Source: a bacterium
GTDB lineage: Bacteria; SAR324; JACQKK01
Reading direction: 5' to 3'
DNA: 64,000 bases
Assembly: GCA_965240465.1 (NCBI GenBank)
Contig: OZ251219.1
Span: 480,001-544,000 of the forward strand
A program made the position numbers and the translations under genes. The stretch's first letter is position 1, and each line of letters opens with the position of its first letter. Below, one piece after another: positions 1,091 through 64,000 of the stretch. The notes under the pieces are model-generated. The model made no database searches and was not told the DNA's origin. It saw only the letters and a list, made by a program, of their open reading frames with translations.

Positions 1091-1109
1091 TTCCCTATTC
1101 ATTGCCTAT

Positions 1110-2852
1110 TCATTGCCTTACAGAAGGAGGCGAAACTCCCAAAATAGGTAGAGATTCTATGGCAATACGTTGGAAGACGGGAGCGGCCACGGTACCGCCA
1201 TATCTGCCCTTTAGGGGTTGTTCAATAATAACCACGATGGTGAGTTGTGGCTGGTTAGCTGGTAGGAATCCTGCGAAGCTGGCGAGATGTAAGGTCTTGG
1301 AGTAGCCTTGGGCTTGGATGTCATAGATTTCGGTGGTTCCTGTTTTGCCTGCTACTCGGATATATGGTATCGCCGCCCGGTTGCCGGTGCCATTGGGTTC
1401 TGTTACTGCCTCCATCCAGCTGCGTACTTGGGAGGTAGTAGCTGGGGAGAACACTTGTCGGACATTTTGTGGTCGTGAGAGGTTGAGAGGTTTTCCTTTT
1501 GGATTGAGTAGGTCTTCTATGATGTAGGGTTGAATGTAGACTCCGTCATTGGCAAAGATATTGATGGCAGCTGCCAGTTGCAGTGGCGAGACCAGCAAGC
1601 CGTGTCCAAATGAGAGAGCGGCGTGATCAACGGCGGTCCATTGTTGATGATTAGGCAGACGTCCAGTAGCTTCGCTGGCTAGTCGTTTGCCATTGCGGTC
1701 GGTGAATATGCCGAGGTTGCTACCGAATCCCAAGCGTTTCATATAGCTGTGAAAAATTGCAGGCGAGATTCGTAGTCCGATTTTAGCAGCACAGATATTG
1801 GAAGAAAATTGAATTACTTGTCGTGGACTCAGATATTCATGGGGGCGAGAATCGTGGATAACACTGTCGTGATGTTGCCAGCTGCCTTGTTCGCAAAAAA
1901 TTTCTTCCCGAGGATTGAGCTGTTGTTCTTCCATAGCAGCCGCTACGGTGAAGGTTTTCATGATAGAACCGGGCTCATAACCACTGGTAATGGCATGATT
2001 GGTAAAGCGTTGACTAGAGTAGGTTTGATAGGCATTAGGATTAAATTGCGGATATTGAGCCAGAGCCATGATGGCTCCCGTAGGACTATGCAGGACTACC
2101 GCTATTCCCAGTTGAGCTTGGCTTTCAACGACCGCTTGGGCAAGAGCCCGTTCGGTAACAAATTGAATTGCCGAATCAAGGCTTAAACGCAGATTGCCTC
2201 CCGCTTGGGGAAAGGTAGAATTTTCATCGGACCGCTGACGTCCTAGGGCATCCAGCTTGAGCACCCGAAAATGTTCCTCCCCCCGCAGATGAGAATTATA
2301 AGCGTATTCTAATCCTGCTAGTCCTTGACTATCCACACCCGCAAAACCCAGCATGGTAGAGGCTAACTCCCGAGCAGGATAAACACGCTTGTACTCTGGC
2401 ACAAAACCCACTCCCTCAACCGATAACTGACGAACCTCGGCTGCCATTGTGGGACTAAGCTGCCGCATCAACCACACAAATGGAGCCGATGATTGCAATC
2501 TCTCCCGCAACAAAGGCAATGGCTGCTTGATGACCGAAGCTAGCTCGGGCAACAATGGCTCATCATTTTTCACTAAGCTAGGATGAGCATAAACTGACTC
2601 GGTCTTTAAAGAAAAAGCCAGCAGCTCCCCATGGCGATCTAAGATGCTCCCTCGCCGTCCCTGCACCTTAAGCACTCGTTCCCCTTGCCTGCGGGCTAAC
2701 CCAGAAAATCTTTCATGACGAACTACCTGCAACTGCCAAGCTCGCAGTGCTACCACCACTCCCCCCAATGCAAACAAAAACATCACCAACCGTACCCGAG
2801 CCTTAAACGCACGCATCGCTCTCTCCCCAGTACCCGAAAAACTACCTATCAT
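1110..2852 (-). CDS. ftsI: Cell division transpeptidase PBP3 (start taken at MIGSF; ORF extends to 2915)
   Basis: N-terminal TM, RGSILDRHG, EPGSIMK (SxxK), SSN (SxN), KTGT; follows rsmH-ftsL. Confidence 0.9.
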   Translation of the reverse strand: MIGSFSGTGERAMRAFKARVRLVMFLFALGGVVVALRAWQLQVVRHERFSGLARRQGERVLKVQGRRGSILDRHGELLAFSLKTESVYAHPSLVKNDEPLLPELASVIKQPLPLLRERLQSSAPFVWLMRQLSPTMAAEVRQLSVEGVGFVPEYKRVYPARELASTMLGFAGVDSQGLAGLEYAYNSHLRGEEHFRVLKLDALGRQRSDENSTFPQAGGNLRLSLDSAIQFVTERALAQAVVESQAQLGIAVVLHSPTGAIMALAQYPQFNPNAYQTYSSQRFTNHAITSGYEPGSIMKTFTVAAAMEEQQLNPREEIFCEQGSWQHHDSVIHDSRPHEYLSPRQVIQFSSNICAAKIGLRISPAIFHSYMKRLGFGSNLGIFTDRNGKRLASEATGRLPNHQQWTAVDHAALSFGHGLLVSPLQLAAAINIFANDGVYIQPYIIEDLLNPKGKPLNLSRPQNVRQVFSPATTSQVRSWMEAVTEPNGTGNRAAIPYIRVAGKTGTTEIYDIQAQGYSKTLHLASFAGFLPANQPQLTIVVIIEQPLKGRYGGTVAAPVFQRIAIESLPILGVSPPSVRQ

Positions 2853-3210
2853 GGAAATCCCCTGTCTTCTCCTTCTCAATCCTATCCTTCTCAATCTTGT
2901 CCCCAATAAATTCATATTGAGATACCAGCGGTAGTTTTAAGCCCATTTTCTTAGCCAGATCCGCTACTCGTTGTGGACGAGATAGATAACCAACTTCGGC
3001 ATCCAAGGGGTGTAATTCCTCCTCCAGCTGGGCTTGAATAGTTCTCAGCTGCTCCAGCCGAAAAGCCAATTGCGTCCACTGCTGACGCTGCCATAAATAC
3101 AACAAAGCTCCCGCCGTCAAGCAAAAGGCAAACAACAACAACACAAAGGCATATCCCAGCCAAGGTACCGAGCGATCTACAGAAATCCTTTTAGATCCAA
3201 ACACCGCCAT
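2842..3210 (-). CDS. ftsL: Cell division protein FtsL-like
   Basis: Single TM plus coiled coil, LSRPQRV...A...MGL motif; located between rsmH and ftsI. Confidence 0.75.
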   Translation of the reverse strand: MAVFGSKRISVDRSVPWLGYAFVLLLFAFCLTAGALLYLWQRQQWTQLAFRLEQLRTIQAQLEEELHPLDAEVGYLSRPQRVADLAKKMGLKLPLVSQYEFIGDKIEKDRIEKEKTGDFHDR

Positions 3211-3248
3211 CCTAGCTGAATAATTAACGACATTACTGATTAGCTAAC

Positions 3249-4235
3249 TTAGTCTACCTCAAAAACACGCAATCTTGCACTGCGAGAACGCGGATTTTTA
3301 CCGACCTCCTCAGTAGTAGCAAAAACAGCCCGCTTAGTCAGTATCTTACCCCGTGACTGCCGATCGCAAACGCAGACCGGCAAATAAGATGGGCAAGTAC
3401 AAGGATGTGCCCATTGCTGCATCGCCTGCTTTACCTGACGATCCTCCAGCGAATGAAAGGATATCACCGCCAACCGACCCCGAACCGCCAACAACCCTAG
3501 GGCTTGTTTTAGCAAGCATTTCAACTCATCCATTTCTTGGTTGACGTAAATCCTTAAAGCTTGAAATACCCGTGTCCCCACATGACGACTAGGATGATGA
3601 GTCCGTTTAGGAACAACTTGCTCTATCAAACGTACCAATTGCCCAGTAGTGAGCAGAGGAGATTTTTGTCGCTGTTGCCAGACGGCACTAGCTAAGCGTT
3701 TAGAAAATCGTTCTTCCCCAAATTCAGAAAATACCCGCCGCAATTCATTCTCAGACGCAGTAGCTAAAAAATCAGCCGCCCGCAGGCTCTGCTCTTGGTC
3801 CATACGCATATCCAAGGGACCCTCACGCTGAAAAGAAAATCCCCTCTCCCCAGCTGCCAACTGAGCCGAAGATACCCCTAAATCCGCCACTAAATAAGCT
3901 ACCGAACCAGCTACCAAATATCGGGACAACTTAGAAAATCGCAACTTTTTTAATTGAATTCGCTCCCTGAAATCACCCAAAACCTTTGCCGATGCCTCCA
4001 GAGCCTGAGCATCACAATCACAGCCCCATAATTTAGCGTGAGGGAATTTTTGTAGCAGTGCCTTAGCATGACCCCCTCCCCCCAAGGTGGCATCTACCAT
4101 AAATCTTGGGTTATCAGGGGCGTAGGCACAAACCTGCTCTAGCAATACTGGCTGATGCTGATAATCCCCACCATCCTTATAATCACTCTTGCTCTTCATA
4201 GCTGATATACACATGGTAAGAGAGTATTTTTCCAT
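3249..4235 (-). CDS. rsmH: 16S rRNA m4C1402 methyltransferase
   Basis: HQPVLL, DATLGGGGH, DLGVSS, GPLDMRMD, FQALRIYVNQE, NPRSRSARLR. Confidence 0.97.
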   Translation of the reverse strand: MEKYSLTMCISAMKSKSDYKDGGDYQHQPVLLEQVCAYAPDNPRFMVDATLGGGGHAKALLQKFPHAKLWGCDCDAQALEASAKVLGDFRERIQLKKLRFSKLSRYLVAGSVAYLVADLGVSSAQLAAGERGFSFQREGPLDMRMDQEQSLRAADFLATASENELRRVFSEFGEERFSKRLASAVWQQRQKSPLLTTGQLVRLIEQVVPKRTHHPSRHVGTRVFQALRIYVNQEMDELKCLLKQALGLLAVRGRLAVISFHSLEDRQVKQAMQQWAHPCTCPSYLPVCVCDRQSRGKILTKRAVFATTEEVGKNPRSRSARLRVFEVD

Positions 4236-10599: not shown

Positions 10600-12492
10600 C
10601 TAGCCATCTTTCAGGTGTATTTCTGGTGGGTTGGAGGCGGGAAACATTTTGGTCATCAGCCATTGTCCCCAGTTATTGGCAGATTGGGGGAGTATTTTTT
10701 TGTTTTGGAATTGAGTTTGGTGTAAGCGGCTGAGGAGTCCTCCTTGGTTGATCAATTCCTGATATTTACCGGATTCCATCACGGTTCCATTGTTGATAAC
10801 GTAGATTTGGTCGACTTGTTGGATGGTGGAGAGGCGGTGAGCGATGACGATGGTGGTGCGATTTTTGATGAGGTTACTGATGGCGAGTTGTATTTCTTGT
10901 TCGGATTCTGTATCTAGGGCGGAGGTAGCTTCATCTAGGATAAGGATGGGGGCATCTTTAACTAGGGCTCGGGCGATGCATAGGCGTTGTCTTTGTCCTC
11001 CTGAGAGTTGCATGCCGCTTTCTCCGATGCTGGTTTCATAGCCTTGTGGGAGTGCGGTGATGAAGTCGTGAGCGTAGGCGGCTTTAGCAGCTGTGATGAT
11101 TGATTTTTGGGTGCAGTTAATTTTGCCGTAGGCGATGTTGTTGCCGACGGTGTCATTAAAGAGGAAGATTTCCTGATTGACCATGGCGATTTGGTTACGC
11201 AAGGAATCGTATGAGCATTTTCGGACATCAATATCATCAATAGTGATGGCTCCTTCTTGGGGTTCAAAGAAGCGTGGGATCATATTGGCTATGGTAGTTT
11301 TGCCAGCTCCGCTGGGTCCTACCAGAGCGATTACCTTACCGCGTGGGATTTTAATATTGATATTGTATAGTTGAATTTTTTTACTGTTATTGTGTTGGAA
11401 TTTTTTAATTTTAAGTTGGATTCCTTTTTTAATGGGGGGCAAAGTTTTAGCGTTGGGATGGTCTTGTTCGCATTCTGCATTAGAAAGGGTAGCAAATACA
11501 TTCTGGCAGGCAGCTAATCCCTCTTGGATGTTAATGTTAAAGCCGCTAAGTCGCTTAAGAGGACTATTCATCATAAATATGGCTAGTACAAACGAAACAA
11601 AATCACCTGGGGTAATCGCCTGCTGGATGATTAAGTGTCCCCCCACTATGATAACCACCGAGCATACTAAGCATCCGATCACCTCTATTATAGGAGTAGA
11701 ATAAGCATTAACCTTAACCGTACACATTTCTTTTTTGGTTATCTCATTGTTAATGACTCTAAAACGTTTGCGTTCATAATCTTGCATGCCGAAAGCTCTC
11801 ACTACCCGAACTCCCCCCATTGTTTCTGATAATAAGGAGCTCATTTTGCCTAGTTTATCCAGTTTTTGTCCGGTCGCTAATTTATTAGCTTGACCAAATA
11901 CATAGATAAACACCATGGCTATCGGAATCGCCAAGATGAAAACTAACAATAGCTGCCAACTACGATATCCCAAGATTCCCAGTAGGATAACAATCATCGG
12001 TAAGTCCCTGAACGGTCCTACTAAGCTGACACGTAGGGCCTGCTGCAGAGTTATTATATCGGAAGTAAAGTGAGATATTAAAGTTCCCACCCGAGTTTTC
12101 ACAAAAAAACCAAAGTTCATCTCCAGCAAGTGATCATAGAGTTGCTGACGCAGTCTGTAGACGGTCTTCTGACCAATCAAGCCCAGTAGATAGTTATGAA
12201 TAAAAAAGAAAAACCCCTTGGCAGAAAAAACAATAACAACTGCCAACCCCATAAAAATAAAACGATCTAAATCCGGAATATCCCCCTTACTCAAATGATC
12301 AACCACATCCTTGGCATACCAAGCAGGCAAAGCATTAAAAAAATTGTAACAAACCATCCCCAGCAAAGCCCCAATGAATAACTTCCTATGCTGAAATACC
12401 AATCCCAGCAAACTCCTCAAGCTAACGTAGTCATTCTTATTCGTCCCCACTTGCACCAATGCAAACCCAATTTTGGAAAAGATGTTTTTCAA
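10600..12492 (-). CDS. MsbA-like ABC exporter (TMD plus NBD)
   Basis: Multi-TM N-terminus, GPSGAGKT, LSGGQRQR, ILDEATSALD. Confidence 0.9.
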   Translation of the reverse strand: MKNIFSKIGFALVQVGTNKNDYVSLRSLLGLVFQHRKLFIGALLGMVCYNFFNALPAWYAKDVVDHLSKGDIPDLDRFIFMGLAVVIVFSAKGFFFFIHNYLLGLIGQKTVYRLRQQLYDHLLEMNFGFFVKTRVGTLISHFTSDIITLQQALRVSLVGPFRDLPMIVILLGILGYRSWQLLLVFILAIPIAMVFIYVFGQANKLATGQKLDKLGKMSSLLSETMGGVRVVRAFGMQDYERKRFRVINNEITKKEMCTVKVNAYSTPIIEVIGCLVCSVVIIVGGHLIIQQAITPGDFVSFVLAIFMMNSPLKRLSGFNINIQEGLAACQNVFATLSNAECEQDHPNAKTLPPIKKGIQLKIKKFQHNNSKKIQLYNINIKIPRGKVIALVGPSGAGKTTIANMIPRFFEPQEGAITIDDIDVRKCSYDSLRNQIAMVNQEIFLFNDTVGNNIAYGKINCTQKSIITAAKAAYAHDFITALPQGYETSIGESGMQLSGGQRQRLCIARALVKDAPILILDEATSALDTESEQEIQLAISNLIKNRTTIVIAHRLSTIQQVDQIYVINNGTVMESGKYQELINQGGLLSRLHQTQFQNKKILPQSANNWGQWLMTKMFPASNPPEIHLKDG

Positions 12493-12790: not shown

Positions 12791-13444
12791 TTGCCAATCC
12801 CACCCACCCAATCGCGACACCTACTCTTCGCCAGACACGGAGAAAGTGAACATAACCTGAATAAAAAGGTGTTCATGGGGCGTTCCCCTAATTCAGCCCT
12901 GACACCCACCGGAACCCAACAAGTAAAATCCCTAGCCCAACACCTCGCCGATGAAAAAATCGCAAATATCCGCCCTGATGCCATAATAAGCTCTTCCCTA
13001 CTGCGATGTAAGCAAACCGCAACCCTTATCGCTACCAAACTTGAAATCCCCCTCCACCTAGAAGATGCCTTCTGGGAACTCAGCAAGGGGCAGTGGGAAG
13101 GTACTATGCCCCGAATACCACTACCCGAACCATGGCTCTCTCAACTAAACCAAGATCCATTCCATTTCCGCTACCCCAAAGGAGAATCCCATCACGACCT
13201 CCAAAAGCGTATCGCCCCCGCTTTCCAAAACTGGATTAAAAAATTCCCCACCGAAAACCTCCTCTTCGTCCTCCACGGCGATGTCCTTCTTAATCTCCTC
13301 CAACAATTAATAGAATTCCCACCCCGACGCATCAATGACTTTAACCTCCAACTCTGCTCCCTGACCCACTTCGTCCAAACACCAACCAATTGGATACTCA
13401 ATTTCTTCAACCATTCTTCCTTCCTACCACCGCAATCCCGCTAG
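12791..13444 (+). CDS. Histidine phosphatase (phosphoglycerate mutase-like) family protein
   Basis: RHGES, E...GQWEG, GES, LHG motifs. Confidence 0.88.
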   Translation: MPIPPTQSRHLLFARHGESEHNLNKKVFMGRSPNSALTPTGTQQVKSLAQHLADEKIANIRPDAIISSSLLRCKQTATLIATKLEIPLHLEDAFWELSKGQWEGTMPRIPLPEPWLSQLNQDPFHFRYPKGESHHDLQKRIAPAFQNWIKKFPTENLLFVLHGDVLLNLLQQLIEFPPRRINDFNLQLCSLTHFVQTPTNWILNFFNHSSFLPPQSR

Positions 13445-13543
13445 ATATCCCCCCCAACAGCTAAGACTTATCCTAACCATCGGATCATAATCACAGCTAT
13501 CAAGGTCTTAGCGGGGATGAAGTATTTCCGTGGCGATTTTTTA

Positions 13544-14257
13544 TTAAGAGCTGGGCTTCCAGCGTAATCCTAGGGAGTAGAAATTCAGTTTTTTGCTTTG
13601 GAACATTAATTGGAATTCGGTGGGGGTTGGGCTAGCGGGAAAGCCATCGCGGGAGACATTATTGCTAAAGAAGTCCAGTTGCCAGTTTTGCCAATCTTGG
13701 GTGCGTTGCAGAGCGTGAAGGAAGCAGCTGGAGCTATCGGTTCTAAGTGCCAGCAGGGCATTGGGTTTACAAACCCATTCTAGGGATTTTTGTAGTTGTT
13801 GATTATCCAGCAGTCGTCGCGGGCGATGTTTGGCTTTAGGCCAGGGGTCGGGGAATTGTATAAGTACTAGGTCTACACTGCGAGGAGGAAGAAATTCTGC
13901 CAAGCGTAAGCCATCTGCATATAGCACCTGAACATTTTGCAGTTGGACACGGTGAAATTTGGTTTGGCTACGCAATAATCGCTTGAGACGCACTTCAAAA
14001 CCAACCAAGAGATCGTTTTGGTGAGCAGATGCTTCTGCTAACAAAAAACCTCCCGAGCCACTACCCAAGTCCACCACCAGACGCCCACACTCCTCCTGAT
14101 GTGCTACCTTCTTCGCTAGCTTTTCGCTCGCTAGCTTTTCGCTCGCTAGCTTTTCGCTCGCTAGCTTTTCGCTCGCTAGCCACTGACGAAACAGGGCTGG
14201 CGAGAAACGCAAATTTGCTACCTCAGCTAGCTTAAGGTTATTTTTACCATTTTTCAT
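13544..14257 (-). CDS. trmB: tRNA (guanine-N7)-methyltransferase
   Basis: DLGSGSGGFL, FPDPWPKAKHRPRRL, RTD, TEF. Confidence 0.9.
   Translation of the reverse strand: MKNGKNNLKLAEVANLRFSPALFRQWLASEKLASEKLASEKLASEKLAKKVAHQEECGRLVVDLGSGSGGFLLAEASAHQNDLLVGFEVRLKRLLRSQTKFHRVQLQNVQVLYADGLRLAEFLPPRSVDLVLIQFPDPWPKAKHRPRRLLDNQQLQKSLEWVCKPNALLALRTDSSSCFLHALQRTQDWQNWQLDFFSNNVSRDGFPASPTPTEFQLMFQSKKLNFYSLGLRWKPSS
14115..14180. repeat. 15-bp tandem repeat x4 inside trmB (encodes LASEK x4)
   Basis: gctagcttttcgctc repeated exactly. Confidence 0.95.
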
Positions 14258-20753: not shown

Positions 20754-20763
20754 GGTTGGGCTG

Positions 20764-22224: not shown

Positions 22225-22248
22225 CACCACTGCTACCCAAACCCGCTG

Positions 22249-44222: not shown

Positions 44223-46073
44223 ATGGTTGGAAAAGTACCTGTTGATAGGCATGAGCCCAAGTTTTCACGTGAGCGAGTGGGTAGTTTGAATGAGGGGGAG
44301 AGGGAGGAAGCCATTTCAGAGTTGATGGGAGCTGAGACGGAATCCCATGGGGATGTCGTGCGTCAGATGGTAGCAGAGGGGAAGCAGCGGGGTTCTATCA
44401 CTTTGGAAGAAATAAATGAGTGTCTGACTTATGAAAAAGATACTGATAAGAAGGCCTCTGCAGAGCTATTGGAAGATTTATTGGTATTTTTTCAAGATAT
44501 GAAGATAGAGGTGCTAGATAATGGTAAAGCCTTGGACTTAGCACAGCATCGCGGAGAACAATCATCCAAAAATAGCTACAATATGGAGCCCTCGGTTGAT
44601 ATTCGTACTGATGACCCCGTACGCATGTATTTGCGTGAGATGGGACACATCAAGTTATTATCTCGTGCCGAGGAGGTGGAGATATCCAAACGGATAGAAG
44701 ATGGGCAACGCAAGATGATAGAGGTTTTGGCTCGTTCTCCCTTAGTGGCAGAGCATTTATTGGAATTGCGTGAAAAACTTTATGATAAGCGGATCAAATC
44801 TCAAGAGCTTATTTCTGGGATGGATGAAGATGATAATGTGATTGAAGAAGATGGGATCTTCGCCGAAAAACTGCTGATAGTCCTAGATTCCATATATAAA
44901 AAACGCCGAGAGATCGCCAAGCTTCTGGCTAAAGATTTAACCAAGAATACCGAATCCAAGATCATCAAGACTCGTCAGACTTTGTCTTTTATCATAGAAG
45001 GCATTAATTTCAACTCTCGGCAGGTGGGTACCATGTGCGAAGTGATGCTCCAACATCGCAATAAAATATACCGAGCCTCTAGCCAACTTGAATCTCTCCA
45101 GCAAAATCTGGGCAAACTAACAGATAAACAAAAAAACCTCCTTAATAAATGGCAGAGTGATTCTCTTAAATACGCCAAACTAGAAACAGAAATTGAAAAA
45201 CTCTGTGGCAAAAGCCCACGAATCATCAGACGACTGATGGAAAAAATGTTCATCACCGATACCAGAATCAAACGCCTTATAACTCAAGCCGAAGCCACTA
45301 GAGAAGAATTCCAAACGGAAATCGGACTCCTAGTAGCATCTGAACGCAAGGTTAAAAAAGCCAAAACTCAACTCACTCAAGCCAACCTCAGATTGGTTAT
45401 CAGCATTGCCAAAAAATACGCCAACCGAGGACTACAATTCCTAGACCTAATCCAAGAAGGTAATATCGGGCTCATGAAAGCCGTAGATAAATTTGAATAC
45501 CGACGCGGCTATAAATTCTCTACCTATGCTACTTGGTGGATCCGACAAGCAATCACTCGGGCCATCGCCGACCAAGGACGAACCATTCGGGTGCCAGTCC
45601 ACATGATCGAAACCATGAATAAATTATTACGCACTTCACGACAACTAGTACAAGAACTCGGCAGAGAACCCTACCCTGAGGAAATCGCTAAAGAAGTGAA
45701 CCTGCCCTTGGAAAAAGTACGCAAAGTATTCCAAATCGCCAAAGAACCAACCTCGCTGGAAACACCCATCGGCGAAGAAGAAGACTCCCACTTAGGCGAC
45801 TTCATCCCCGATCCCAACGCTCAAATGCCCGAAGACCTCGCCCTTACCCAAAACCTCCGTGAAAATACACGCGAAGCACTGGATAAACTAACCGAACGAG
45901 AAGGTAAAGTCCTCGCAATGCGTTTCGGAATCGGAAAACAACGCGATCACACCCTAGAAGAAATCGGACAAGATTTTGACGTCACCAGAGAGCGTATCCG
46001 ACAAATTGAAGCCAAAGCACTACGCAAACTGCGTCATCCCGTACGCTCTAAGCACTTGCGTACCTTCTTTTAG
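44223..46073 (+). CDS. rpoD: Primary RNA polymerase sigma factor sigma70
   Basis: [69 protein letters not shown] before ATG 44223. Confidence 0.97.
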
Positions 46074-47296: not shown

Positions 47297-48589
47297 GTGA
47301 GTATCCTAGGAATCTCCAAAGCATCTAGTTTATTGGTAATTATTTCAGCGATGATGATTATCTCACCAGCAGAGGCAGAGGCAGTACCAAAGGCAGTGCC
47401 GAAGGCAGAAGTGCTTCACTGGTGGACTTCAGGGGAAGCAGGAAAGTCCATTCAGTTACTCAAGGATAGTTTTATCAAGCATGGTGGTAAGTGGATAGAT
47501 TCTGATATTAGGGGTCCCGATGCTATTTCTGGGTTGCAGCCGTTGAAGGCGAGGGTATTATCGGGGAGTGCTCCCACGGCAGTGCAGTTGAAGGGGCCTT
47601 TTATTCAGGGATGGCATAAGAGTGGAGCTTTGGCATTCATAGATGAGGTAGCTACTAAGGGAGGATGGAATAGATTATTATTACCTCAGGTGCGTCAACA
47701 GGTGCTTTGTGATGGTCGTTATTGTGCGGTGCCTGTTAACATTCATCGCGTTGACTGGATCTGGGGTAGTGCCAGGGTATTGAAAGCTGCTGGGGTTCGT
47801 AGGATGCCTCGTAGCTGGAAGGAGTTCAATAGTGCTGCCCGCAAGGTCCAAGCGATTAAGAAAATAGCTCTAGCTCATAGCGGACAAGCTTGGCAAAACG
47901 CCACCTTGTTTGAAACCGTTGTCTTAGGAGTAGGGGGCAATCAATTCTACCAGCGTGCCTTAATAGACCTAGAACCAGCCGCATTAAACAGCGACACTAT
48001 GGTTAAGGTCTTTGACCAAATGCGTATCCTAAGCGGCTTTGTAGATAAAGACTTCTCAGGACGTGATTGGAATTTAGCTACTTCACTCATCATTAACGAT
48101 AAAGCAGCTTTTCAAATCACTGGGGACTGGGCAAAAGTGAAATTCCTCACCGCTGGCAAAAAACCAGGTAAGGATTTCTATTGCTCGCCCACCCCCAGCA
48201 AAGGATACCTCTACAGTATAGACAACTTTGCTATGTTCAAGGTCAAAGGACCAGAAAAAAAACAAGGACAACTCCTACTAGCTAAACTCATCATGGATAA
48301 AAAATTCCAAAAAGAATTTAACCTGAAAAAAGGCTCCATCCCCGCACGCTTAGATGTCTCCCTCATACAATTTGACCAATGTGCCAAAAAATCTAGCAAA
48401 GATATCCTATCAAAATCCAAAAAAGGGGCGGTACTACCCAGCCTACTCCATAGGACAATCAACCTCGGACCCGCTAAGGGAAAAATCCTAAACACCGTCG
48501 CCCAACACTTTAACTCCAATCTATCCTCAAAAAAAGCAACTCAAAAATTGGCTGAATCCCTCGCTCTCCCAATCCCTCACCAACAATAA
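47297..48589 (+). CDS. Sugar (glucose/mannose-type) ABC transporter substrate-binding protein
   Basis: Signal peptide, EVLHWWTSG, VPVNIHR, GDWAK, FNLKKGSIPARLD. Confidence 0.88.
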   Translation: MSILGISKASSLLVIISAMMIISPAEAEAVPKAVPKAEVLHWWTSGEAGKSIQLLKDSFIKHGGKWIDSDIRGPDAISGLQPLKARVLSGSAPTAVQLKGPFIQGWHKSGALAFIDEVATKGGWNRLLLPQVRQQVLCDGRYCAVPVNIHRVDWIWGSARVLKAAGVRRMPRSWKEFNSAARKVQAIKKIALAHSGQAWQNATLFETVVLGVGGNQFYQRALIDLEPAALNSDTMVKVFDQMRILSGFVDKDFSGRDWNLATSLIINDKAAFQITGDWAKVKFLTAGKKPGKDFYCSPTPSKGYLYSIDNFAMFKVKGPEKKQGQLLLAKLIMDKKFQKEFNLKKGSIPARLDVSLIQFDQCAKKSSKDILSKSKKGAVLPSLLHRTINLGPAKGKILNTVAQHFNSNLSSKKATQKLAESLALPIPHQQ

Positions 48590-51462: not shown

Positions 51463-52083
51463 TTATTCTTTGCAATTTTTCAAGTAAATGAGGATTGCCC
51501 CACTACCTCCCATATTAGGAGGAGCTGAGGAGAATCTTTTGATCAGAGTTTTAGCAGTGGTGGTTTGTAGCCATTGAGAGACGGTTTGAAAGAGTATTGG
51601 TCCTTGGCAGCCAGAATGCAGTCCCTTTCCAGTGATAACTAGGATTTTTTGATATTTTTTATGGGAGCTATCATAGAGGAATGATTGGAGTTTGCTAAGA
51701 GCTTCTATTTGAGTGCATCCGTGGAGGTCAAGGGTAGGGTGGGTTTGGTGGGATGGGGAGTGGGGAGAGTAGGGGGTGTAGGGAGTTTTTGGGATAGATT
51801 GAAAGATTTTCTTTTTTTTATTTAGGTTATCAGGTTGGATTTGTTCATCGGTATTGGGTGGGGGGGTTTGAGTTTTAATGGCTAATTTTAGTAGTAGTTG
51901 GTCGTCATCTTGTTCTATGAATGAGATAGGTTTGGCGAGTTTTAGGATATCATTGGCAGGGTTTTCATCAGGTTTGGTTGGTTGGGTGGTATTGGGAAGA
52001 GTTAGAGTAGTTATGGGGGTATTTTTGTTGGTAGAGGAAGGGAAGAGATGGTGGCGGGATTTTTTCATTTTACTTCCTCCCAA
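51463..52083 (-). CDS. Smr/MutS2 domain protein
   Basis: LDLHG, VITGKGLHS, GGSGA. Confidence 0.88.
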   Translation of the reverse strand: MGGSKMKKSRHHLFPSSTNKNTPITTLTLPNTTQPTKPDENPANDILKLAKPISFIEQDDDQLLLKLAIKTQTPPPNTDEQIQPDNLNKKKKIFQSIPKTPYTPYSPHSPSHQTHPTLDLHGCTQIEALSKLQSFLYDSSHKKYQKILVITGKGLHSGCQGPILFQTVSQWLQTTTAKTLIKRFSSAPPNMGGSGAILIYLKNCKE

Positions 52084-52982
52084 TCGGCGGCGATATCCAC
52101 GGACGGAGCGGATTGAGTGAGTGCTCCTACTGACACGGCATTTACTCCACTGGCGGCGATATCGGGGAGGTTATGGAGTCGGATATTACCAGAGGCTTCG
52201 GTGAAGATTTTTTTATTGATGATTTGGAGGGCTATTTTGAGATTATTGATGGTCATATTATCTAGTAGGAGGGCATCGGCACCTGATTTCAGGGCTATTT
52301 TGAGGTTTTGCAGGGTATCCACTTCTACTTGGATAAGCAATCCGTGTGGGATACGCTGTTTTAGTTTAGGGATTGCTTTTGCGAGGGGGATGCCTTGGTT
52401 TTCCAGTATTGCGAGGTGGTTATCTTTGACGAGGATGCCATCTGCGAGGGAGAAGCGGTTGTTATGTCCGCCGCCGGTGGAGACTGCATATTTTGCGAGG
52501 GTTCTGAGTCCTGGGATGGTTTTGCGGGTATCGCAGACTCGGAGGTGGGGATTTATTTGGTGGGCGATTTGGACGTATTTTTGGGTAAGGGTAGCGATTC
52601 CGCTCAAGTGTTGCAGGAAGTTAAGAGCTACTCGTTCGGCTGCGAGCAGTGCTAGTGCTGGTCCTGTGATTATGGCGAGGGTATCATTGGTTGCGAATGT
52701 TTGTCCATCGGAGTGATGTGTTTGCCATTGGATATTGGGATCGCACTGGAGGAAGGTTTCTCTGGCTAGTTCCAGCCCGCAGGCGATCCCAGCTTCGCGA
52801 GAGCGTAGTGCTAAGCGAGCTGGTTGGTTTTGCTCTAAGAGGGCTTGACTAGTCATGTCTCCCCAGCCCAGGTCTTCTTTCAGAGCGACATTCACCGAGC
52901 TTATCACCTGTTGAGCCTGCAATTTATTCATGTTCCGTTTATAAAAAGCAGCTTTATTATCGTGCCTAACAGAGCTAATCAC
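52065..52982 (-). CDS. nadC: Nicotinate-nucleotide pyrophosphorylase (carboxylating)
   Basis: ERVALNFLQ.LSGIAT, DTRKT.PG, KDNH, EVDT, LLDNM, EASG. Confidence 0.95.
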   Translation of the reverse strand: MISSVRHDNKAAFYKRNMNKLQAQQVISSVNVALKEDLGWGDMTSQALLEQNQPARLALRSREAGIACGLELARETFLQCDPNIQWQTHHSDGQTFATNDTLAIITGPALALLAAERVALNFLQHLSGIATLTQKYVQIAHQINPHLRVCDTRKTIPGLRTLAKYAVSTGGGHNNRFSLADGILVKDNHLAILENQGIPLAKAIPKLKQRIPHGLLIQVEVDTLQNLKIALKSGADALLLDNMTINNLKIALQIINKKIFTEASGNIRLHNLPDIAASGVNAVSVGALTQSAPSVDIAADWEEVK

Positions 52983-53976
52983 GGGGTATTGCGAGCATTC
53001 TCTTTAGGGCTTGGCGAGCTCCGTGCAGGACATCGGGAGGTACATTCACTTCAAACACGTGTTCGGTGAGGGCTCTTTTTACATCTTTGAGGCCGACCAT
53101 TTTCATGTAGGGGCAGTGCAGTCGGCACCCGAGGCAGCCATCGGCGAGGATGAATTCTTTATCGGGATAGGCTTTTTTCAGTTGATGTAGCATGCCATTT
53201 TCGGTAGCGATCAAGAAGGTTTTCGCATGAGGATACCAACCTACTCGTTCAATCATAGCGGTGGTAGAGCAGACTTCATCAGCCATTTCAATAACATCTT
53301 GGCGGCATTCAGGGTGAGCGATTACTATTGCCTGTGGTCTTTCATCTTTTACCTTAGTAACGCTTGACCCCCTAAGTACATCGTGAGTAGGACAGCAGCC
53401 ATCATAGATGGCCATATCCACATCTGGCAGTTGAGCACTCACCCAATTGCCCAGGTTGCGATCTGGAGTAAACAGCACCTTTTTGCTTTTCAGGCTACGC
53501 ACTACGGATACCGCATTGGCAGAAGTGCAACAAATATCGCTGAGAGCCTTCACTTCTGCACTGGAATTGATGTAGGTCACCACCACATGTTGCGGGTACC
53601 TATCTTTCCAGTCTTGCAGGCTTTCCGGCGAAATGCTATCCGCCAACGAACAACCCGCTGCAACATGAGGTAAGAGTACGGTCTTTTCCTCATTGAGTAC
53701 CTTGGCTGATTCTGCCATAAAGTGTACCCCGCAAAACACTACATAATGAGCATTCGTTTGCTGTGCCTGCAGAGCCAGCCCTAGCGAATCGCCGACAAAA
53801 TCAGCTATATCTTGCACCGCGGTAGCCTGATAATTATGAGCCAAGATCAACGCTTGTTGCTCTTTAGCCAAAGTCCGAATTTCGGTCTGCAATAAAGCCG
53901 TCTCTTCCACAGACAGCCTGCCGTTCACATATTGAGCCGCAGTAGGAAAGGAAACATTTGCAGTGACTTCTGTCAT
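52975..53976 (-). CDS. nadA: Quinolinate synthase
   Basis: LAHNYQ, GDSLGL, CGVHFMAE, AGCSLAD, CTSANA, HPEC, CPYMK. Confidence 0.95.
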   Translation of the reverse strand: MTEVTANVSFPTAAQYVNGRLSVEETALLQTEIRTLAKEQQALILAHNYQATAVQDIADFVGDSLGLALQAQQTNAHYVVFCGVHFMAESAKVLNEEKTVLLPHVAAGCSLADSISPESLQDWKDRYPQHVVVTYINSSAEVKALSDICCTSANAVSVVRSLKSKKVLFTPDRNLGNWVSAQLPDVDMAIYDGCCPTHDVLRGSSVTKVKDERPQAIVIAHPECRQDVIEMADEVCSTTAMIERVGWYPHAKTFLIATENGMLHQLKKAYPDKEFILADGCLGCRLHCPYMKMVGLKDVKRALTEHVFEVNVPPDVLHGARQALKRMLAIPRD

Positions 53977-54459: not shown

Positions 54460-56484
54460 ATGACCTTTCTTCCTACTTCTCTTAATGTTTCTGCATCTCA
54501 GTTACGCAAGGCGGCGAATGCCTTGCGTTTTTTGGCTATGGATGCGGTACAAAAGGCTAATTCGGGTCATCCTGGGATGCCGATGGGCATGGCAGATATT
54601 GCCACCGTCTTATGGGGTGGATTTTTGCGACACAATCCTACTAATCCAGCTTGGTTTGATCGGGATCGTTTTGTCCTATCCAATGGGCATGGTTGTATGC
54701 TGCTTTATGGGCTTTTGCATTTGAGTGGTTATGATCTACCATTGGAGGCCCTACAGCAATTTCGTCAATGGGGCAGTCAAACGCCCGGTCACCCTGAATA
54801 CGGGCATACTCCGGGGGTGGAAGTGACTACCGGTCCCCTAGGGCAAGGGATTGCCAATGCAGTGGGTTTTGCGTTGGCAGAGCGATGGCTAGCACAACGT
54901 TTTAATCGTGATGCTCATGAGATAATAAACCACCGTACCTATGTGTTTTTGGGGGATGGCTGCCTGATGGAAGGTCTTAGTCATGAGGCTTGCAGTCTGG
55001 CAGGTCACCTAAAACTAGGACGTCTAATCGCCCTTTATGATGATAATCACATCAGCATTGATGGTCCCACTGAGCTATCCTTTAGCGAGAACGTTCCTCA
55101 GCGATTTAGCAGCTATGGCTGGAAAACCCAACAATTAGATGGTCATGACCCAGTTGCCATAAAAGCTGCTCTGGAGAATGCTCAGCGAGATCAATCTGCT
55201 CCTCATTTGCTGTGCTGCAAAACCACCATCGGCTGGGGAGCACCGAGCAAAGCTGGGCAAGCTTCCACCCATGGTTCACCGCTGGGTGATGAAGAAATTG
55301 CGGCTACCCGCCAAAAGCTGAATTGGCATCACCCCCCATTTGAACTGCCCCCTGAGGTAAAGGAATTCTGGCAGGTTTCCCTGAAAAAAGGTCAACAACT
55401 AGAAGCTGACTGGAACCAACAATTGAGTGCTTATCAACAACAATTTCCCTCAGAAGCAACCGAACTCAAACGTATTATTAAAGGGAAACCCTCTCAACAA
55501 TGGCAACAACCCCTAGAAAACCTACTGCTGCAATGGAAAACTCAACCCCCAGCAGAAAATGCCACCCGAGCTCATTCAGGAGCAGTACTAAACACCATCG
55601 TCCCTTGCCATACCGACCTACTAGGAGGTTCTGCCGACCTCACTCCCTCCAATAACACCCGCACCAACCACCACACCGACATCTCCCCACTACAATGGCA
55701 GGGAAATTATATCCGCTATGGCGTAAGAGAACACGCCATGGGTGCCATAATGAACGGATTGGCTCGCCATGGAGGTTGTCTGCCCTATGGGGCTACCTTC
55801 CTTACCTTCTCCGACTACATGCGTCCCGCCATTAGAATGGCAGCTATAATGAAAATCCAAGTAATCTATGTCTTCACTCATGACAGCATCGGACTAGGAG
55901 AAGACGGACCCACCCACCAACCTATAGAACATCTAGCCAGCTTGAGAGCTATCCCCAACCTTAGAGTACTCAGACCCGCAGATGCCCGCGAAACCGCCCA
56001 ATGTTGGCAATTAGCCCTCCAATACCAAGGACCCTCACTACTGGCTCTCAGCAGACAAAAAATCCCTCACCTGCCCGGCTCCCAACAATATCTCTGTCAT
56101 CAGGGTGCTTATATCATCTCCTCTAGCAAACAAACACCCAAAGCAATACTGATGGCTAGTGGAACAGAGGTGCAAATCGCCATCCAAGCCCAAACCCTCC
56201 TGGAACAACAAAACATCCCTACCAGAGTGATCAGCATGCCCTGCTGGGAACTCCTTACCACTCAGCATCATTCTTTGCTATCACTTCCCGAGCCAGTCGT
56301 TAAACTAGCCATAGAAGCCGCCAGCCCATTTGGTTGGCATCAGTGGCTCGGAGAACAGGGCATCGCCCTGGGGATGCAATCCTTTGGAGCTTCCGCCCCA
56401 GCCGATAAACTATATACCCAGTTTAATCTCACCCCCCAGGCAATCGTAAAAGAAGTCCAAACTCGCTGCAAACTAAACACTTAA
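54460..56484 (+). CDS. tkt: Transketolase
   Basis: SGHPGMPMG, RDRFVLSNGH, TTGPLGQG, GDGCLMEG, YGVREH, THDSIGLGEDGPTHQP. Confidence 0.97.
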   Translation: MTFLPTSLNVSASQLRKAANALRFLAMDAVQKANSGHPGMPMGMADIATVLWGGFLRHNPTNPAWFDRDRFVLSNGHGCMLLYGLLHLSGYDLPLEALQQFRQWGSQTPGHPEYGHTPGVEVTTGPLGQGIANAVGFALAERWLAQRFNRDAHEIINHRTYVFLGDGCLMEGLSHEACSLAGHLKLGRLIALYDDNHISIDGPTELSFSENVPQRFSSYGWKTQQLDGHDPVAIKAALENAQRDQSAPHLLCCKTTIGWGAPSKAGQASTHGSPLGDEEIAATRQKLNWHHPPFELPPEVKEFWQVSLKKGQQLEADWNQQLSAYQQQFPSEATELKRIIKGKPSQQWQQPLENLLLQWKTQPPAENATRAHSGAVLNTIVPCHTDLLGGSADLTPSNNTRTNHHTDISPLQWQGNYIRYGVREHAMGAIMNGLARHGGCLPYGATFLTFSDYMRPAIRMAAIMKIQVIYVFTHDSIGLGEDGPTHQPIEHLASLRAIPNLRVLRPADARETAQCWQLALQYQGPSLLALSRQKIPHLPGSQQYLCHQGAYIISSSKQTPKAILMASGTEVQIAIQAQTLLEQQNIPTRVISMPCWELLTTQHHSLLSLPEPVVKLAIEAASPFGWHQWLGEQGIALGMQSFGASAPADKLYTQFNLTPQAIVKEVQTRCKLNT

Positions 56485-59496: not shown

Positions 59497-61470
<1,974 letters not shown>

Positions 61471-61699
61471 TTATCACCGCCGCTTGTCAATTCTTATAAA
61501 ACGAAGCTACTGCAAAGAATCTTTCCATCAAACCCTCTCCATAATTTTTATTAGGGGATACATGGTAATATTTGACAATCTAAGTAAAATGTTCTCCAAT
61601 GGCAGTTCATTATTACGCTTGGTTATTTAGTGTACTTGGTTATTTAGTGTACTCGGTTGTTTTTGTGATTAGTGTTTTCCATTTTTATGGGTAGTTGAA

Positions 61700-62050
61700 A
61701 TGTCAATGGTTGAAAGTCAGACTGATAAGGATTCTTATGCGGTGGTAGAGACTGGTGGTCGCCAATATGTGGTACGTCCTCAGGCGGTGATTGAAGTTAA
61801 TCGCTTAGATCTGCAGGTGGGAGAACCTTTTGAGACCGAGAAAGTGTTGCTCACCCACGGAGTAGGCGGGGGCCCTAAGGTGGGAGATCCTTATGTTTCG
61901 GGAGCCAAAGTAAGGGGGGTGATATTGGAGCATGTGAGGGGGAATAAGATCTTGGTGTTCAAAAAGAAGCGTCGTAAGGGATATGCTCGTACTCGGGGTC
62001 ATCGGCAGGAGTTGACAAGGGTTAAGATTGAGTCTCTTGAGGGAGCTTGA
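61700..62050 (+). CDS. rplU: 50S ribosomal protein L21
   Basis: YAVVETGGRQY, FKKKRRKGY...GHRQ. Confidence 0.96.
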   Translation: MSMVESQTDKDSYAVVETGGRQYVVRPQAVIEVNRLDLQVGEPFETEKVLLTHGVGGGPKVGDPYVSGAKVRGVILEHVRGNKILVFKKKRRKGYARTRGHRQELTRVKIESLEGA

Positions 62051-62695: not shown

Positions 62696-63256
62696 ATGTT
62701 GCGAATATCCTCTGGACAATGGAAAGGGCGTTCCTTGCGTGCCACTGCCGATGGGGTTCGTCCCACCAGTGCCCGAGTCCGAGCTGCCATATTTGATTCT
62801 CTTAGCACCCGTACCTGCCTTACTGGAGCAAGAGTGCTGGATTTGTTCGCTGGGAGCGGAGCCTTGGGTTTAGAAGCCTACAGCCAAGGAGCTGCTTGGG
62901 TGGTCTTTGTAGAACCACACCGCCGCGTGATTGAAACCCTGAAGAAAAATATCGCTCAACTGAAACTGACCTCTTATCAAGTGATACATGCCAAAGCAGA
63001 AGATTGGCTTAAAAACCCGCCCCCGACCCAGCCATTTGATATCGCCCTTTTGGATGCTCCCTATCATTTCCCAGTTTTGCAAACCACCCTTGAATTGCTC
63101 GCCCAGCCCGGCTGGCTTAAAACAAAAGCCCTCATCGCTGCCGAAACTCACCACCATCACCAACTCAATTGCCCCCCCAGCTGGACACTCCAAAAAAACA
63201 TCCGCCACGGAGATACCCTGCTACGGTTCTATCAAGTACAAGCACCCCCAAATTAA
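62696..63256 (+). CDS. rsmD: 16S rRNA m2G966 methyltransferase
   Basis: MLRISSG.WKGR, RPT..RVR, LDLFAGSGALGLEA, DAPY. Confidence 0.92.
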   Translation: MLRISSGQWKGRSLRATADGVRPTSARVRAAIFDSLSTRTCLTGARVLDLFAGSGALGLEAYSQGAAWVVFVEPHRRVIETLKKNIAQLKLTSYQVIHAKAEDWLKNPPPTQPFDIALLDAPYHFPVLQTTLELLAQPGWLKTKALIAAETHHHHQLNCPPSWTLQKNIRHGDTLLRFYQVQAPPN

Positions 63257-63303
63257 TAGAGCACTGACTAATAGAGCACTGACTAATAGAGCACTGACTA
63301 ATA
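63254..63303. repeat. 15-bp tandem repeat x3 starting at the rsmD stop
   Basis: taatagagcactgac x3. Confidence 0.9.
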
Positions 63304-63320
63304 AAATCCTGAGATCCCCC

Positions 63321-64000
63321 ATGAAACCCTATTCACCCTACTTTTGGCTGCTAGCCTTAGTGATTTACTCCTTTGGCAATATCCACCTAAGTGCGGCTCA
63401 AACTACCCACAAACCCTCACCGCTAGGCGTTATGTGGCTCACCAAAACCACCACCGCCTACACAGAAGGACCTACGGTTGGGCGTTCCTATCGCTTGTTG
63501 CGTAATCAATCGTATCCAGTCATCAATCTTACCATTGATGAACTAGGGCAAGCTTGGCGAAAATTAAAACTACCTCAGTACTCCCAAACCAAGAGCGGAA
63601 TAGGCTGGTCGCCACTGGAAGCCCATCAATTATCAGAAGGATATGAAACAGTGATCATCTACACCCAGCTACCTGAGGATGTCCGTAGCCCCCTTAATTC
63701 TTTGCACCTGCTGGCGGATGATGTATTTTTGCTCAATGCCGAGCAGACCGTTCGTGGTTTTCCCCTCATTGTCTGGAATAAGGCTCGTTATCGCACCAAG
63801 GTGGTAGCCGAAGCTTGGGTTTTGGCTGAACATGGGATTTTTCGCGTAGGCATTACCGAAAAACACATGTTAGAAGCCTATGAAGACATGGTGAGTCGTC
63901 AAATTTCCTTGCTCAAAAGAACTAGGTTGCTGAATGGAGTCGTACTACCCGGTGACAGTCAACAAGAAGTTCGTTGGGCCCTGGGCGAACCCTTACTAGT
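63321..64000 (+). CDS. Hypothetical exported protein, truncated by the window end
   Basis: Open frame MKPYSPYFWLLALVIYSFG... with a signal-peptide-like N-terminus, running to ...EVRWALGEP at the edge. Confidence 0.65.
   Translation, partial: MKPYSPYFWLLALVIYSFGNIHLSAAQTTHKPSPLGVMWLTKTTTAYTEGPTVGRSYRLLRNQSYPVINLTIDELGQAWRKLKLPQYSQTKSGIGWSPLEAHQLSEGYETVIIYTQLPEDVRSPLNSLHLLADDVFLLNAEQTVRGFPLIVWNKARYRTKVVAEAWVLAEHGIFRVGITEKHMLEAYEDMVSRQISLLKRTRLLNGVVLPGDSQQEVRWALGEPLL

Follow-up and report, generated by a model that had tools for sequence, protein, structure and literature searches.

Bacterial strand asymmetry in base composition is usually presented as a product of replication, with flips at the origin and the terminus and a small constant contribution from transcription. 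In vertebrate mitochondrial DNA, the strand bias is graded by the time a strand spends single-stranded, counted from one replication origin, and Touchon et al. reportedly described mammalian N-domains, in which a saw-tooth of small skews extends between replication origins on a scale of about 1 Mb. Where asymmetry follows transcription, the standard explanation given in the consulted part of a review of strand asymmetry is deamination of the single-stranded non-template strand; that part lists skews linked to replication and to transcription, and nothing in it resembles the bacterial pattern described below (PMC10030826). For unicellular fungi, a two-ended GC skew of genes has been described, with a C-biased 5' end and a G-biased 3' end, and McLean and Tirosh argue in the consulted part of their report that a near-uniform AT skew combined with a changing GC skew speaks against deamination in these organisms (PMC3315797). 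The subject of this report is a stretch of 64,000 nucleotides (the window) from the genome of a SAR324 bacterium (contig OZ251219.1), in which the forward (+) strand repeatedly drifts from G/T-rich to C/A-rich and then flips back. The teeth of this saw-tooth are genes and operons, and the abrupt flips are the junctions of neighbouring units: in this genus, the coding strand runs from a G(+T)-rich, C-poor start to a C(+A)-rich, G-poor end over approximately 1-3 kb.

The genome under study (G000) is a single contig of 1.599 Mb, of which the window covers bases 480001-544000. A second genome of the same genus (G001) comprises 1.72 Mb, also in one contig, while relatives within the family and order have genomes of 2.3-5.3 Mb. 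The nearest named relatives by PyrG are 49-59% identical and are metagenome-assembled genomes labelled Deltaproteobacteria, Omnitrophota, Thermodesulfobacteriota and others. Genes were called by a greedy longest-open-reading-frame (ORF) rule, yielding a set of 1230 genes that is crude, has exact 3' ends and agrees with Pfam within the window, where 43 of 49 ORFs of at least 150 amino acids have Pfam matches, many of them strong (transketolase, CTP synthase, NadA, the penicillin-binding proteins (PBPs), sigma-70 and the NiFe hydrogenase). Transcription units are throughout those inferred from ORFs and gaps, and expression level is presumed from gene identity. An abrupt flip was defined as a C/A-to-G/T change between 400-bp arms with a jump above 0.4, of which G000 has 79; these upward flips were compared with the 45 strongest transitions in the opposite, G/T-to-C/A, direction.

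An earlier note on this stretch, made by eye, had claimed that the + strand drifts from G/T-rich to C/A-rich and then flips, and the computed skew reproduces all eight of its example domains. In a table of base composition per 400 bp, each of them appears as a fall of 0.4-0.8 in (G+T)-(C+A), followed by an abrupt return:

10.4-13.6 kb, + strand: fall from +0.33 to -0.33
19.6-22.8 kb, + strand: fall from +0.46 to -0.33
25.6-28.8 kb, + strand: fall from +0.33 to -0.31
31.6-34.0 kb, + strand: fall from +0.21 to -0.44
44.0-46.4 kb, + strand: fall from +0.24 to -0.28
46.8-49.2 kb, + strand: fall from +0.21 to -0.21
51.6-56.4 kb, + strand: fall from +0.42 to -0.23, with a small rise at 54.4 kb
61.6-63.6 kb, + strand: fall from +0.27 to -0.19

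The seventh of these, taken by the note as one domain at 51.45-56.4 kb, consists of two units, the nadA side and a divergent transketolase gene. On the + strand of the window, the 1-kb GC skew reaches a maximum of +0.49 (19.5-20.5 kb) and a minimum of -0.55 (33-34 kb), and in the sliding profile the AT skew moves opposite to the GC skew. Read directly, the letters from 19.7 to 20.8 kb are nearly free of C and poor in A, and those from 21.4 to 22.7 kb are nearly free of G and poor in T. The standard deviation (sd) of the 1-kb GC skew is 0.218 in the window and 0.178 in the whole of G000, compared with 0.02-0.09 in 24 relatives and a chance value that we calculate at about 0.047.

The saw-tooth shape is itself significant, the skewness of the 0.4-kb increments being 0.24 versus 0.003 ± 0.053 (maximum 0.14) in 500 block-reversal controls. 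The regular spacing of 3-8 kb proposed in the note was not recovered: the autocorrelation has a length of about 1 kb and merely a faint echo near 3 kb, without periodicity. Skew at four-fold degenerate sites, taken per 600-nt chunk, has an sd of 0.38 where approximately 0.15 is expected, and its distribution is flat-topped (excess kurtosis -0.46). The notion of two stable states was rejected, the distribution being broad but not clearly bimodal.

An artefact of assembly or sequencing, be it a chimeric contig or a strand-specific base-calling error, is hardly credible as the source of this pattern. Independently built contigs from two runs of one sample span the flips at 13.5, 19.7, 20.8, 22.8 and 25.8 kb, with 0-1 differences in 20 kb at depths of 64-192x. 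The sample is possibly the source sample itself and thus not independent, but these bridging contigs exclude the assembler chimerism that the note had named as a possible explanation. Furthermore, a second single-contig genome, from another species, presents the same pattern gene by gene, and the genes concerned have strong Pfam matches. The sole difference within the 20 kb is at position 16781, where the contig of one run (depth 192) has G and the window has A.

Genome-wide, the flips are anchored to genes. Within 100 bp of a gene boundary lie 81% of the 79 upward flips, compared with 24% both for random points and for the 45 downward transitions. Among the 78 upward flips that were classified, 68 occur at boundaries, and all four types are represented: 22 between two minus-strand genes ('--'), 21 convergent, 14 between two plus-strand genes ('++') and 11 divergent, the other 10 being inside genes. 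Downward transitions are placed inside genes in 31 of 44 classified cases. Within the window, six of the seven flips (13503, 19703, 25839, 28783, 35398 and 61541) fall in or at the edge of intergenic gaps, while the seventh, at 34257, is situated 169 bp inside a longest-ORF call and upstream of its first Pfam-matched residue. Two of them are bounded as follows:

13444..13544, no strand: abrupt C/A-to-G/T flip at 13503, jump 0.54, in the gap of convergent genes ending at 13444 (+) and 13544 (-)
61392..61700, no strand: abrupt flip detected at 61541, jump 0.47, in the divergent gap after pyrG, with gene edges at 61392 and 61700

Between the flips, the composition changes along the genes themselves. 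Averaged by decile over the 664 genes that measure 900 bp or more, the GC skew of third codon positions (GC3 skew) starts at +0.105 and has dropped to between -0.17 and -0.18 in the final two deciles; we estimate the slope from start-anchored bins at about -0.25 per kb, and codon positions 1 and 2 shift in the same direction as position 3. In 73% of these genes, the first third surpasses the last in G/T-richness, and the difference between the two exceeds 0.2 in 22% of genes and lies below -0.2 in 2.3%. The gradient reaches beyond the reading frames: the skew is +0.06 to +0.11 in the 200 bp before the longest-ORF start and -0.09 in the first 50 bp past the stop, where it extends for 50-100 bp. 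Because a gene-anchored 5'-to-3' gradient reads alike after reverse-complementing, genes on the + and - strands show equal polarity. The note had seen this equal polarity correctly, though not its meaning: a ramp that reverse-complementing leaves unchanged is not 'independent of gene orientation'.

The gradient is partly shared by operons. In those of at least three genes, the first-third GC3 skew by rank is 0.217, 0.156, 0.059 and 0.043, and in the extreme cases (the hydrogenase, flhF-flhG, mraW-ftsI and nadA-nadC-smr operons) one tooth is a whole operon. The C-richness of 3' ends is confined to the ends of units, measuring -0.147 if the next gene is convergent, -0.15 to -0.18 if it is tandem and at least 40 bp away, and -0.026 if less than 40 bp separates the two. 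The 5' effect measures +0.186 where the preceding gene is divergent and +0.133 within tight operons. On balance, we read the saw-tooth as a property of transcription units rather than of fixed DNA sites. The units within the window that display it are the following:

1110..4235, - strand: mraW to PBP2/FtsI-like unit (Pfam Methyltransf_5, Transpeptidase/PBP_dimer)
10600..12492, - strand: MsbA-like ABC exporter, a one-gene tooth (Pfam ABC_membrane and ABC_tran)
19703..22731, + strand: NiFe-hydrogenase operon with small subunit, large subunit and a 160-aa ORF (Pfam NiFe_hyd_SSU_C, NiFeSe_Hases)
25904..28660, - strand: flhF-flhG unit, one tooth (Pfam SRP54, ParA/MinD-type)
28791..33678, - strand: PBP1A - Ddl - metallophosphoesterase run (Pfam Transgly/Transpeptidase, Dala_Dala_lig, Metallophos)
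44145..46073, + strand: rpoD, a one-gene tooth (Sigma70 regions 1.1-4), GC3 gradient 1.08
47297..48589, + strand: solute-binding protein gene, a one-gene tooth (SBP_bac_1), gradient 0.49, GC3 gradient 1.28
51463..53976, - strand: nadA-nadC-smr operon (Pfam NadA, QRPTase, Smr)
54460..56484, + strand: transketolase gene, its own tooth, divergent from nadA (transketolase domains)

The most extreme tooth is the hydrogenase operon. The flip at 19703 lies in the divergent gap that precedes it, and by thirds its GC3 skew is +1.00/+0.81/+0.82, then +0.14/-0.53/-0.80, then -0.64/-0.54/-0.26. The small subunit (19782-20753) shows the extent to which the bias has rewritten a conserved enzyme. Pfam matches its C-terminal domain alone (residues 195-268), and the N-terminal two-thirds match no model; a twin-arginine-like start and cysteine motifs are still present. 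In the mraW-ftsI unit, the coding strand is G/T-rich in mraW and at the 5' end of ftsI and C/A-rich at the 3' end of ftsI, so that (G+T)-(C+A) on the + strand reads +0.25 at 1.2 kb, -0.24 at 2.4 kb and -0.17 to -0.20 until 4.0 kb; the PBP2 gene has a gradient of 0.42 and a GC3 gradient of 1.21. The coding strand of the MsbA-like gene has a GC3 skew by thirds of +0.33/-0.27/-0.74 (-0.19/-0.12/-0.50 in the G001 orthologue). The flhF-flhG tooth is bounded by the flips at 25839 and 28783, with jumps of 0.46 and 0.48, and covers two genes together with a 380-bp, repeat-filled gap (tandem repeat at 26867-27117). Along the PBP1A run, the coding strand drops steeply inside PBP1A and thereafter remains on a C-rich plateau, GC3 skew by thirds being +0.87/-0.01/-0.61 for PBP1A and -0.33/-0.43/-0.37 for ddl. 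Finally, the coding strand of nadA-nadC-smr is near balance at its start and strongly C/A-rich at its end (the + strand reads -0.06 at 53.6 kb and +0.42 at 51.6 kb), and the transketolase tooth sets in with a + strand step from -0.12 (54.0 kb) to +0.16 (54.4 kb), from which it declines to -0.23.

An ordinary replication skew coexists with these teeth. The cumulative curve of G000 has a single minimum near 608 kb and a single maximum near 1562 kb, and the term amounts to about ±0.11 in GC3; the note was therefore right to distinguish the local asymmetry from an origin/terminus skew. Leading-strand genes have GC3 skews by thirds of +0.21/+0.09/-0.02, lagging-strand genes of -0.02/-0.14/-0.21: the local gradient adds to, and is independent of, the replication skew. 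The skew-defined replichores of G000 are unequal (~954 kb and ~645 kb), and its genes of at least 900 bp have no leading-strand preference (347 leading, 341 lagging).

The note had explained the pattern by anchoring at fixed sites, and a process of this kind would be recurrent DNA synthesis or unwinding, whether from many origin-like sites, by R-loop-primed replication or by nick-primed strand displacement. Each flip would on that view mark a switch of the origin type, and each ramp a zone of random meeting, resembling the mammalian N-domains. The polarity of the abrupt flips, from C-rich to G-rich, is indeed of the origin type, the ramps are roughly linear and the composition is mirror-symmetric around the flips. 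Convergent ends, where no promoter is expected, hold 21 of the 68 boundary flips as against 199 of 1229 adjacent gene pairs, and tandem duplications crowd the intergenic gaps, where they make up 14% of non-coding bases. The flips do not, however, share a motif: at the 79 sites no k-mer is enriched beyond composition (best p ~2e-4 among ~1000 tests), and what they have in common is their position at gene and operon ends. Nor are they regularly spaced, and the origin/terminus skew is that of an ordinary single pair, merely additive, with a local gradient that is equal in both replichore classes. Gene structure is what the anchoring follows, being present at unit ends and lacking at tight operon junctions. 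We consider fixed-site synthesis quite unlikely; it predicts the same strand polarity as divergent transcription does.

Tandem repeats were tried as anchors of the flips and rejected, as the size of the jump has no consistent dependence on a repeat in the gap. They are abundant in G000 (1226 TRF rows, 6.9% of all bases), concentrate in intergenic gaps and gene ends and carry local skew. A perfect array of four 194-bp copies spans the tkt/rpe junction. Examples within the window are:

15341-15655, 26867-27117, 29666-29922, 46070-46327 and 56375-57157, no strand: tandem repeats (TRF)

The trait is shared by G001, in which the sd of the 1-kb skew is 0.14-0.19 and the GC3 gradient +0.26. The relatives without it are G004, G008, G009 and G019 (sd 0.02-0.09, GC3 gradient -0.05 to 0.00) together with 20 others, sampled at 4-20 kb each, in which the sd is 0.02-0.08 versus a median of 0.147 for 20-kb pieces of G000. 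Between G000 and G001, 208 reciprocal-best orthologue pairs correlate in whole-gene GC3 skew (r=0.65) and in gradient (r=0.58); since their median identity is 63%, silent sites are saturated between the two genomes. The thirds of hydA, for instance, have GC3 skews of +1.00/+0.81/+0.82 (G000) and +0.86/+0.74/+0.75 (G001). Although the hydrogenase operon and PBP1A-ddl have opposite orientations in G000 and G001, their coding-strand pattern has been kept. From these comparisons, the trait dates from the ancestor of this reduced-genome genus or from earlier, and has been maintained or inherited since.

Genes of low GC content (<36%, n=16) have a mean GC3 gradient of -0.05 versus +0.22 for the 672 others, and were probably acquired recently. 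The window contains one such island in the form of a restriction-modification locus:

23024..25799, + strand: type I restriction-modification island without gradient (Pfam N6_Mtase, Methylase_S, RE_HaeIII, N6_N4_Mtase)

Its GC content is 0.26-0.30 (~29%) and its (G+T)-(C+A) near 0, and similar gradient-free, low-GC islands occur at 185-1090 and 36916-38963. Restriction-modification genes are dense in the window (185-1090, 9564-10487, 17820-19579, 23024-25799 and 36916-38963) and comprise a HaeIII-type endonuclease, three N6/N4 methylases, type I hsdM/hsdS and a PD-(D/E)XK nuclease. The blocks at 185-1090, 23024-25799 and 36916-38963 have a GC content of ~29-33%, the G000 average being 45%.

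Foreign islands of this kind, the replication skew of ±0.11 in GC3 and the inversion of some units between G000 and G001 are what one would look for if the saw-tooth were a patchwork of many small inversions or imports in a genome with strong replication skew. Inversions, however, predict abrupt steps in both directions at boundaries, whereas here the upward flips alone are abrupt and bound to boundaries, and the downward changes are gradual and proceed inside intact genes with strong Pfam matches. GC3 skews of up to +1.0 and -0.8 are far above the replication term, and the intragenic gradient is common to orthologues of two species. A patchwork is accordingly very improbable.

The sites that change give some indication of the process. 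Along genes, the four-fold sites lose G (0.222 to 0.149) and gain C (0.230 to 0.316), while A (~0.24) and T (~0.30) are flat. For two-fold sites, chunks were grouped by the composition of codon positions 1 and 2: C/(C+T) is 0.51 in C/A-rich and 0.21 in G/T-rich chunks, and G/(A+G) goes from 0.23 to 0.64, so that at either extreme a single strand appears depleted of C and its partner stays near baseline. Some silent sites are near fixation, one gene having no C in ~108 third positions. Compared with the trait-free relatives over codon positions 1 and 2 of 75 genes, which yields net changes and not a polarised phylogenetic inference, G-rich stretches have a net 409 C>T, 196 C>G and 175 C>A, and C-rich stretches present the mirror image (453 G>A, 226 G>C). 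At 36 tandem flips, the composition of the 3' end (A.320, C.273, G.178, T.229) equals the reverse complement of the 5' end (A.336, C.306, G.152, T.207) within 0.03 per base, and this mirror symmetry fits one strand-symmetric process.

Protein composition is changed as well. Genome-wide, N-terminal thirds are enriched in D (ratio 1.41), C (1.36), W (1.16) and V (1.10), and C-terminal thirds in Q, Y, N, I, T and P (ratios 0.80-0.92), with H at 0.93. Of the skews in amino-acid use that the note had reported, those in N-terminal W and V and in C-terminal T, P and Q hold genome-wide; that in N-terminal G does not (1.01). Selection at the protein level is not the cause, because the skew reaches non-coding flanks and four-fold sites. 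This reach into silent sites, flanks and amino-acid use fits a mutation pressure. The asymmetry is local, recurrent along the genome and strand-biased, as the note had maintained, and we likewise prefer its broader idea, that mutation acts locally and recurrently with a strand bias, to the other readings.

The exchange of G and C alone at four-fold sites is also what selection for C-minus-G would give. In this alternative, the composition of the transcript is itself selected, the RNA being G-rich and C-poor at its start and C-rich and G-poor at its end, possibly so that Rho spares young transcripts and is loaded at unit ends, so that R-loops are controlled, or so that messages stay unfolded. 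Rho prefers C-rich, G-poor RNA, and it is present in G000; moreover, 3' C-richness is restricted to unit ends whatever the orientation of the neighbour, and few unit-like 3' ends carry a hairpin-plus-T terminator (12 of 194 in G000), the number in the window being at chance level. Yet the relatives, which likewise have Rho and an intrinsic terminator at just 0-4% of 3' ends, show no gradient. A Rho loading site needs ~80 nt, whereas the observed bias spans kilobases and rewrites codon positions 1 and 2 and amino-acid use. Weak selection would hardly hold such a bias in a reduced genome, and the mirror-image 5' and 3' compositions are simpler to obtain from one strand-symmetric process than from two selective targets. 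We regard selection on transcript composition as unlikely. Canonical hairpin-plus-T terminators are rare in all five relatives of the order that were scanned (0-6% of unit-like 3' ends), and their scarcity was rejected as a distinctive cause, being common to the whole order.

Among the systems described previously, transcription-associated asymmetry resembles the pattern in several respects. The 5' half of the coding strand is G/T-rich and C-poor, silent sites and transcribed non-coding flanks are affected, the signal follows the coding strand and the limits of units, and the net change versus relatives is mainly C to T on the coding strand. Such asymmetry is, however, expected to keep one sign along a unit, whereas here the sign reverses and the 3' half has a C-depleted template strand. 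It is also expected to grow with expression, whereas the genes presumed to be most expressed are the least skewed; the amplitude here reaches GC3 skews of +1.0 and -0.8. The fungal skew, as far as the consulted part of its description goes, is likewise two-ended with an intermediate middle, affects four-fold sites, flanks and amino-acid use and has a nearly flat AT skew in common with the present one, but its polarity is opposite, the present 5' end being G-biased and the 3' end C-biased (PMC3315797). It is furthermore found in eukaryotes with RNA polymerase II, whereas the skew described here belongs to one bacterial genus, operates partly at the level of operons and is far larger (PMC3315797).

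With N-domains, the saw-tooth shares its abrupt upward jumps, their polarity and the roughly linear declines; it differs in its scale of 1-5 kb, its larger amplitude, the location of the jumps at gene and operon ends and the single origin/terminus skew alongside. The mitochondrial bias resembles it in that silent sites of one strand have lost nearly all their C, in the positional gradient and in the occurrence of both C-to-T and A-to-G changes at two-fold sites, but here the gradient resets at each unit and is two-sided, and the exchange at four-fold sites is mainly of G for C. A mirror skew of the break-resection type, with an abrupt change from G/T on the left to C/A on the right, is not matched, as the abrupt switches here are from C/A to G/T. 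We conclude that this is a new form of strand asymmetry linked to transcription, which has two ends, works on the scale of operons, matches mitochondrial DNA in strength and is specific to the genus. Full-text literature searches returned no two-ended gene or operon skew in bacteria, the nearest analogue being fungal, which does not prove that none is in print; within the literature searched, such a skew of units was not previously known in bacteria.

As to its cause, we lean with modest confidence towards a long-acting, strand-specific mutation pressure tied to the ends of transcription units. Cytosine would be lost, most often by C to T and then by C to G and C to A, from the strand that runs 5' to 3' away from the nearer unit boundary, which would be the coding strand near the start of the unit and the template strand near its end. 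The strand leading away from a start is exposed by RNA polymerase (the non-template strand), by a replication fork (the lagging-strand template) and by nick-primed strand displacement (the displaced strand), and all three would leave the same trace in sequence. Transcription is favoured because the anchors are inferred unit ends, because tight operon junctions lack the 3' effect and because a normal origin/terminus signal coexists. More speculatively, the affected strand may be left single-stranded by machines moving inward from the unit boundaries: at the 5' end this would be sense transcription, through its bubble or an R-loop, and at the 3' end either antisense or divergent transcription entering from the downstream gap or an exposure of the template linked to termination, poorly translated RNA being perhaps the most damaging. 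G-rich RNA would favour R-loops, so the bias may reinforce itself, a speculation that could explain both the extreme values and the heritability. Divergent or antisense transcription with R-loops is a guess as to the cause. In its most far-reaching form, which we hold to be rather doubtful, the proposal would make every inter-unit gap of this genus a two-way launch site for unwinding, through divergent, largely untranslated transcription with R-loops or through R-loop- or nick-primed DNA synthesis; the strand leading away would be single-stranded so often as to lose nearly all its cytosine, in a self-reinforcing process that fixes each stretch in either a G-rich or a C-rich state, is inherited across speciation and reshapes proteins. 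If true, this would be a self-reinforcing mutational landscape on the scale of units, of mitochondrial strength, in a free bacterial chromosome, for which there is no described precedent.

Several observations weigh against a transcription-linked mutation pressure. The exchange of G and C alone at four-fold sites is not predicted by simple C-to-T deamination, which is unlikely to be the full explanation because A and T are flat there. The 5' effect all but vanishes (+0.005) where the preceding gene is tandem and at least 150 bp away, and in the window the + strand gene at 12791-13444 is C/A-rich from its first codon on. A uniform positional model, comprising position in gene or unit plus replication, has an R2 of 0.09-0.17 for the variance of 300-bp segments. 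Position within transcription units, which the note had contemplated as a full explanation, accounts for the polarity and for where flips occur but not for the amplitude, since the model captures just 9-17% of that variance. Amplitude is strongly gene-specific, and no link was found between it and protein conservation (rho -0.03). The genes for ribosomal proteins, EF-Tu and EF-G are almost unskewed: apart from one at -0.50, their GC3 skews lie between -0.17 and +0.30, and those of the str and S10 runs between 0.0 and +0.19 (rpsL, rpsG, fusA, tuf and the S10 and spc genes are among the nearly unskewed ones). Because these most-transcribed genes, as they presumably are, are nearly unskewed, damage is not proportional to transcription, and the weak skew of highly expressed genes needs an extra assumption: either that tight coupling of translation protects them, naked RNA in R-loops being harmful and translated RNA harmless, or that selection on these genes withstands the pressure. 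Promoter-like sites, which antisense transcription would call for, occur at chance level (38 found, 38.6 expected). Finally, a search of 14 families of repair and transcription proteins revealed no loss specific to the genus.

The local, unit-tied term dominates the composition of this genome, the sd of the 1-kb skew being 0.18 compared with a replication term of about ±0.11 in GC3. A bias of this size would mislead skew-based origin finders, detectors of foreign DNA, gene finders and measures of codon usage. If the cause is mutational, the two species would constitute a natural read-out of the exposed DNA strand along a bacterial operon, and antisense transcription, R-loops and termination-linked damage would become directly testable. 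The trait had a single origin, in a lineage whose genome has shrunk from ~3-5 Mb to 1.6-1.7 Mb, and a lost or changed factor is thus open to comparative search.

Among the families searched, mfd, UDG, rho, RNase HI, RNase HII, mutS, topA, xth and nth are present in G000, in G001 and in relatives. Endonuclease V was found in none of 13 genomes (G000 and 12 relatives), and RecG above its family cut-off in none of the 13 either, the sole matches being mfd genes. Three further candidates were rejected. Loss of mutY does not qualify, as the gene was not found in G000 (E<=1e-20) but is present in G001. A Y-family polymerase is lacking in both G000 and G001, yet G006, G019, G020 and G022 lack it too; the sampled parts of G019, G020 and G022 are without such skew, and G006 was seen over 4.4 kb only. 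A gene of the cytidine-deaminase fold has one copy in G000 and none in G001. The mutY gene of G001 (G001:C1:1615527-1616330) is located in a stretch syntenic with the window, and mutY also occurs in nine of 11 other relatives searched. Outside the window, G000 possesses an RNase HI gene (G000:C1, 255696-256100) and four short fragments, at 261288, 264802, 267855 and 271375, that match the C-terminal 40 residues of RNase H. These fragments are ~3.1-3.5 kb apart, each has an internal stop, and together the region at ~255.7-271.5 kb looks like a large tandem repeat carrying the 3' end of the gene.

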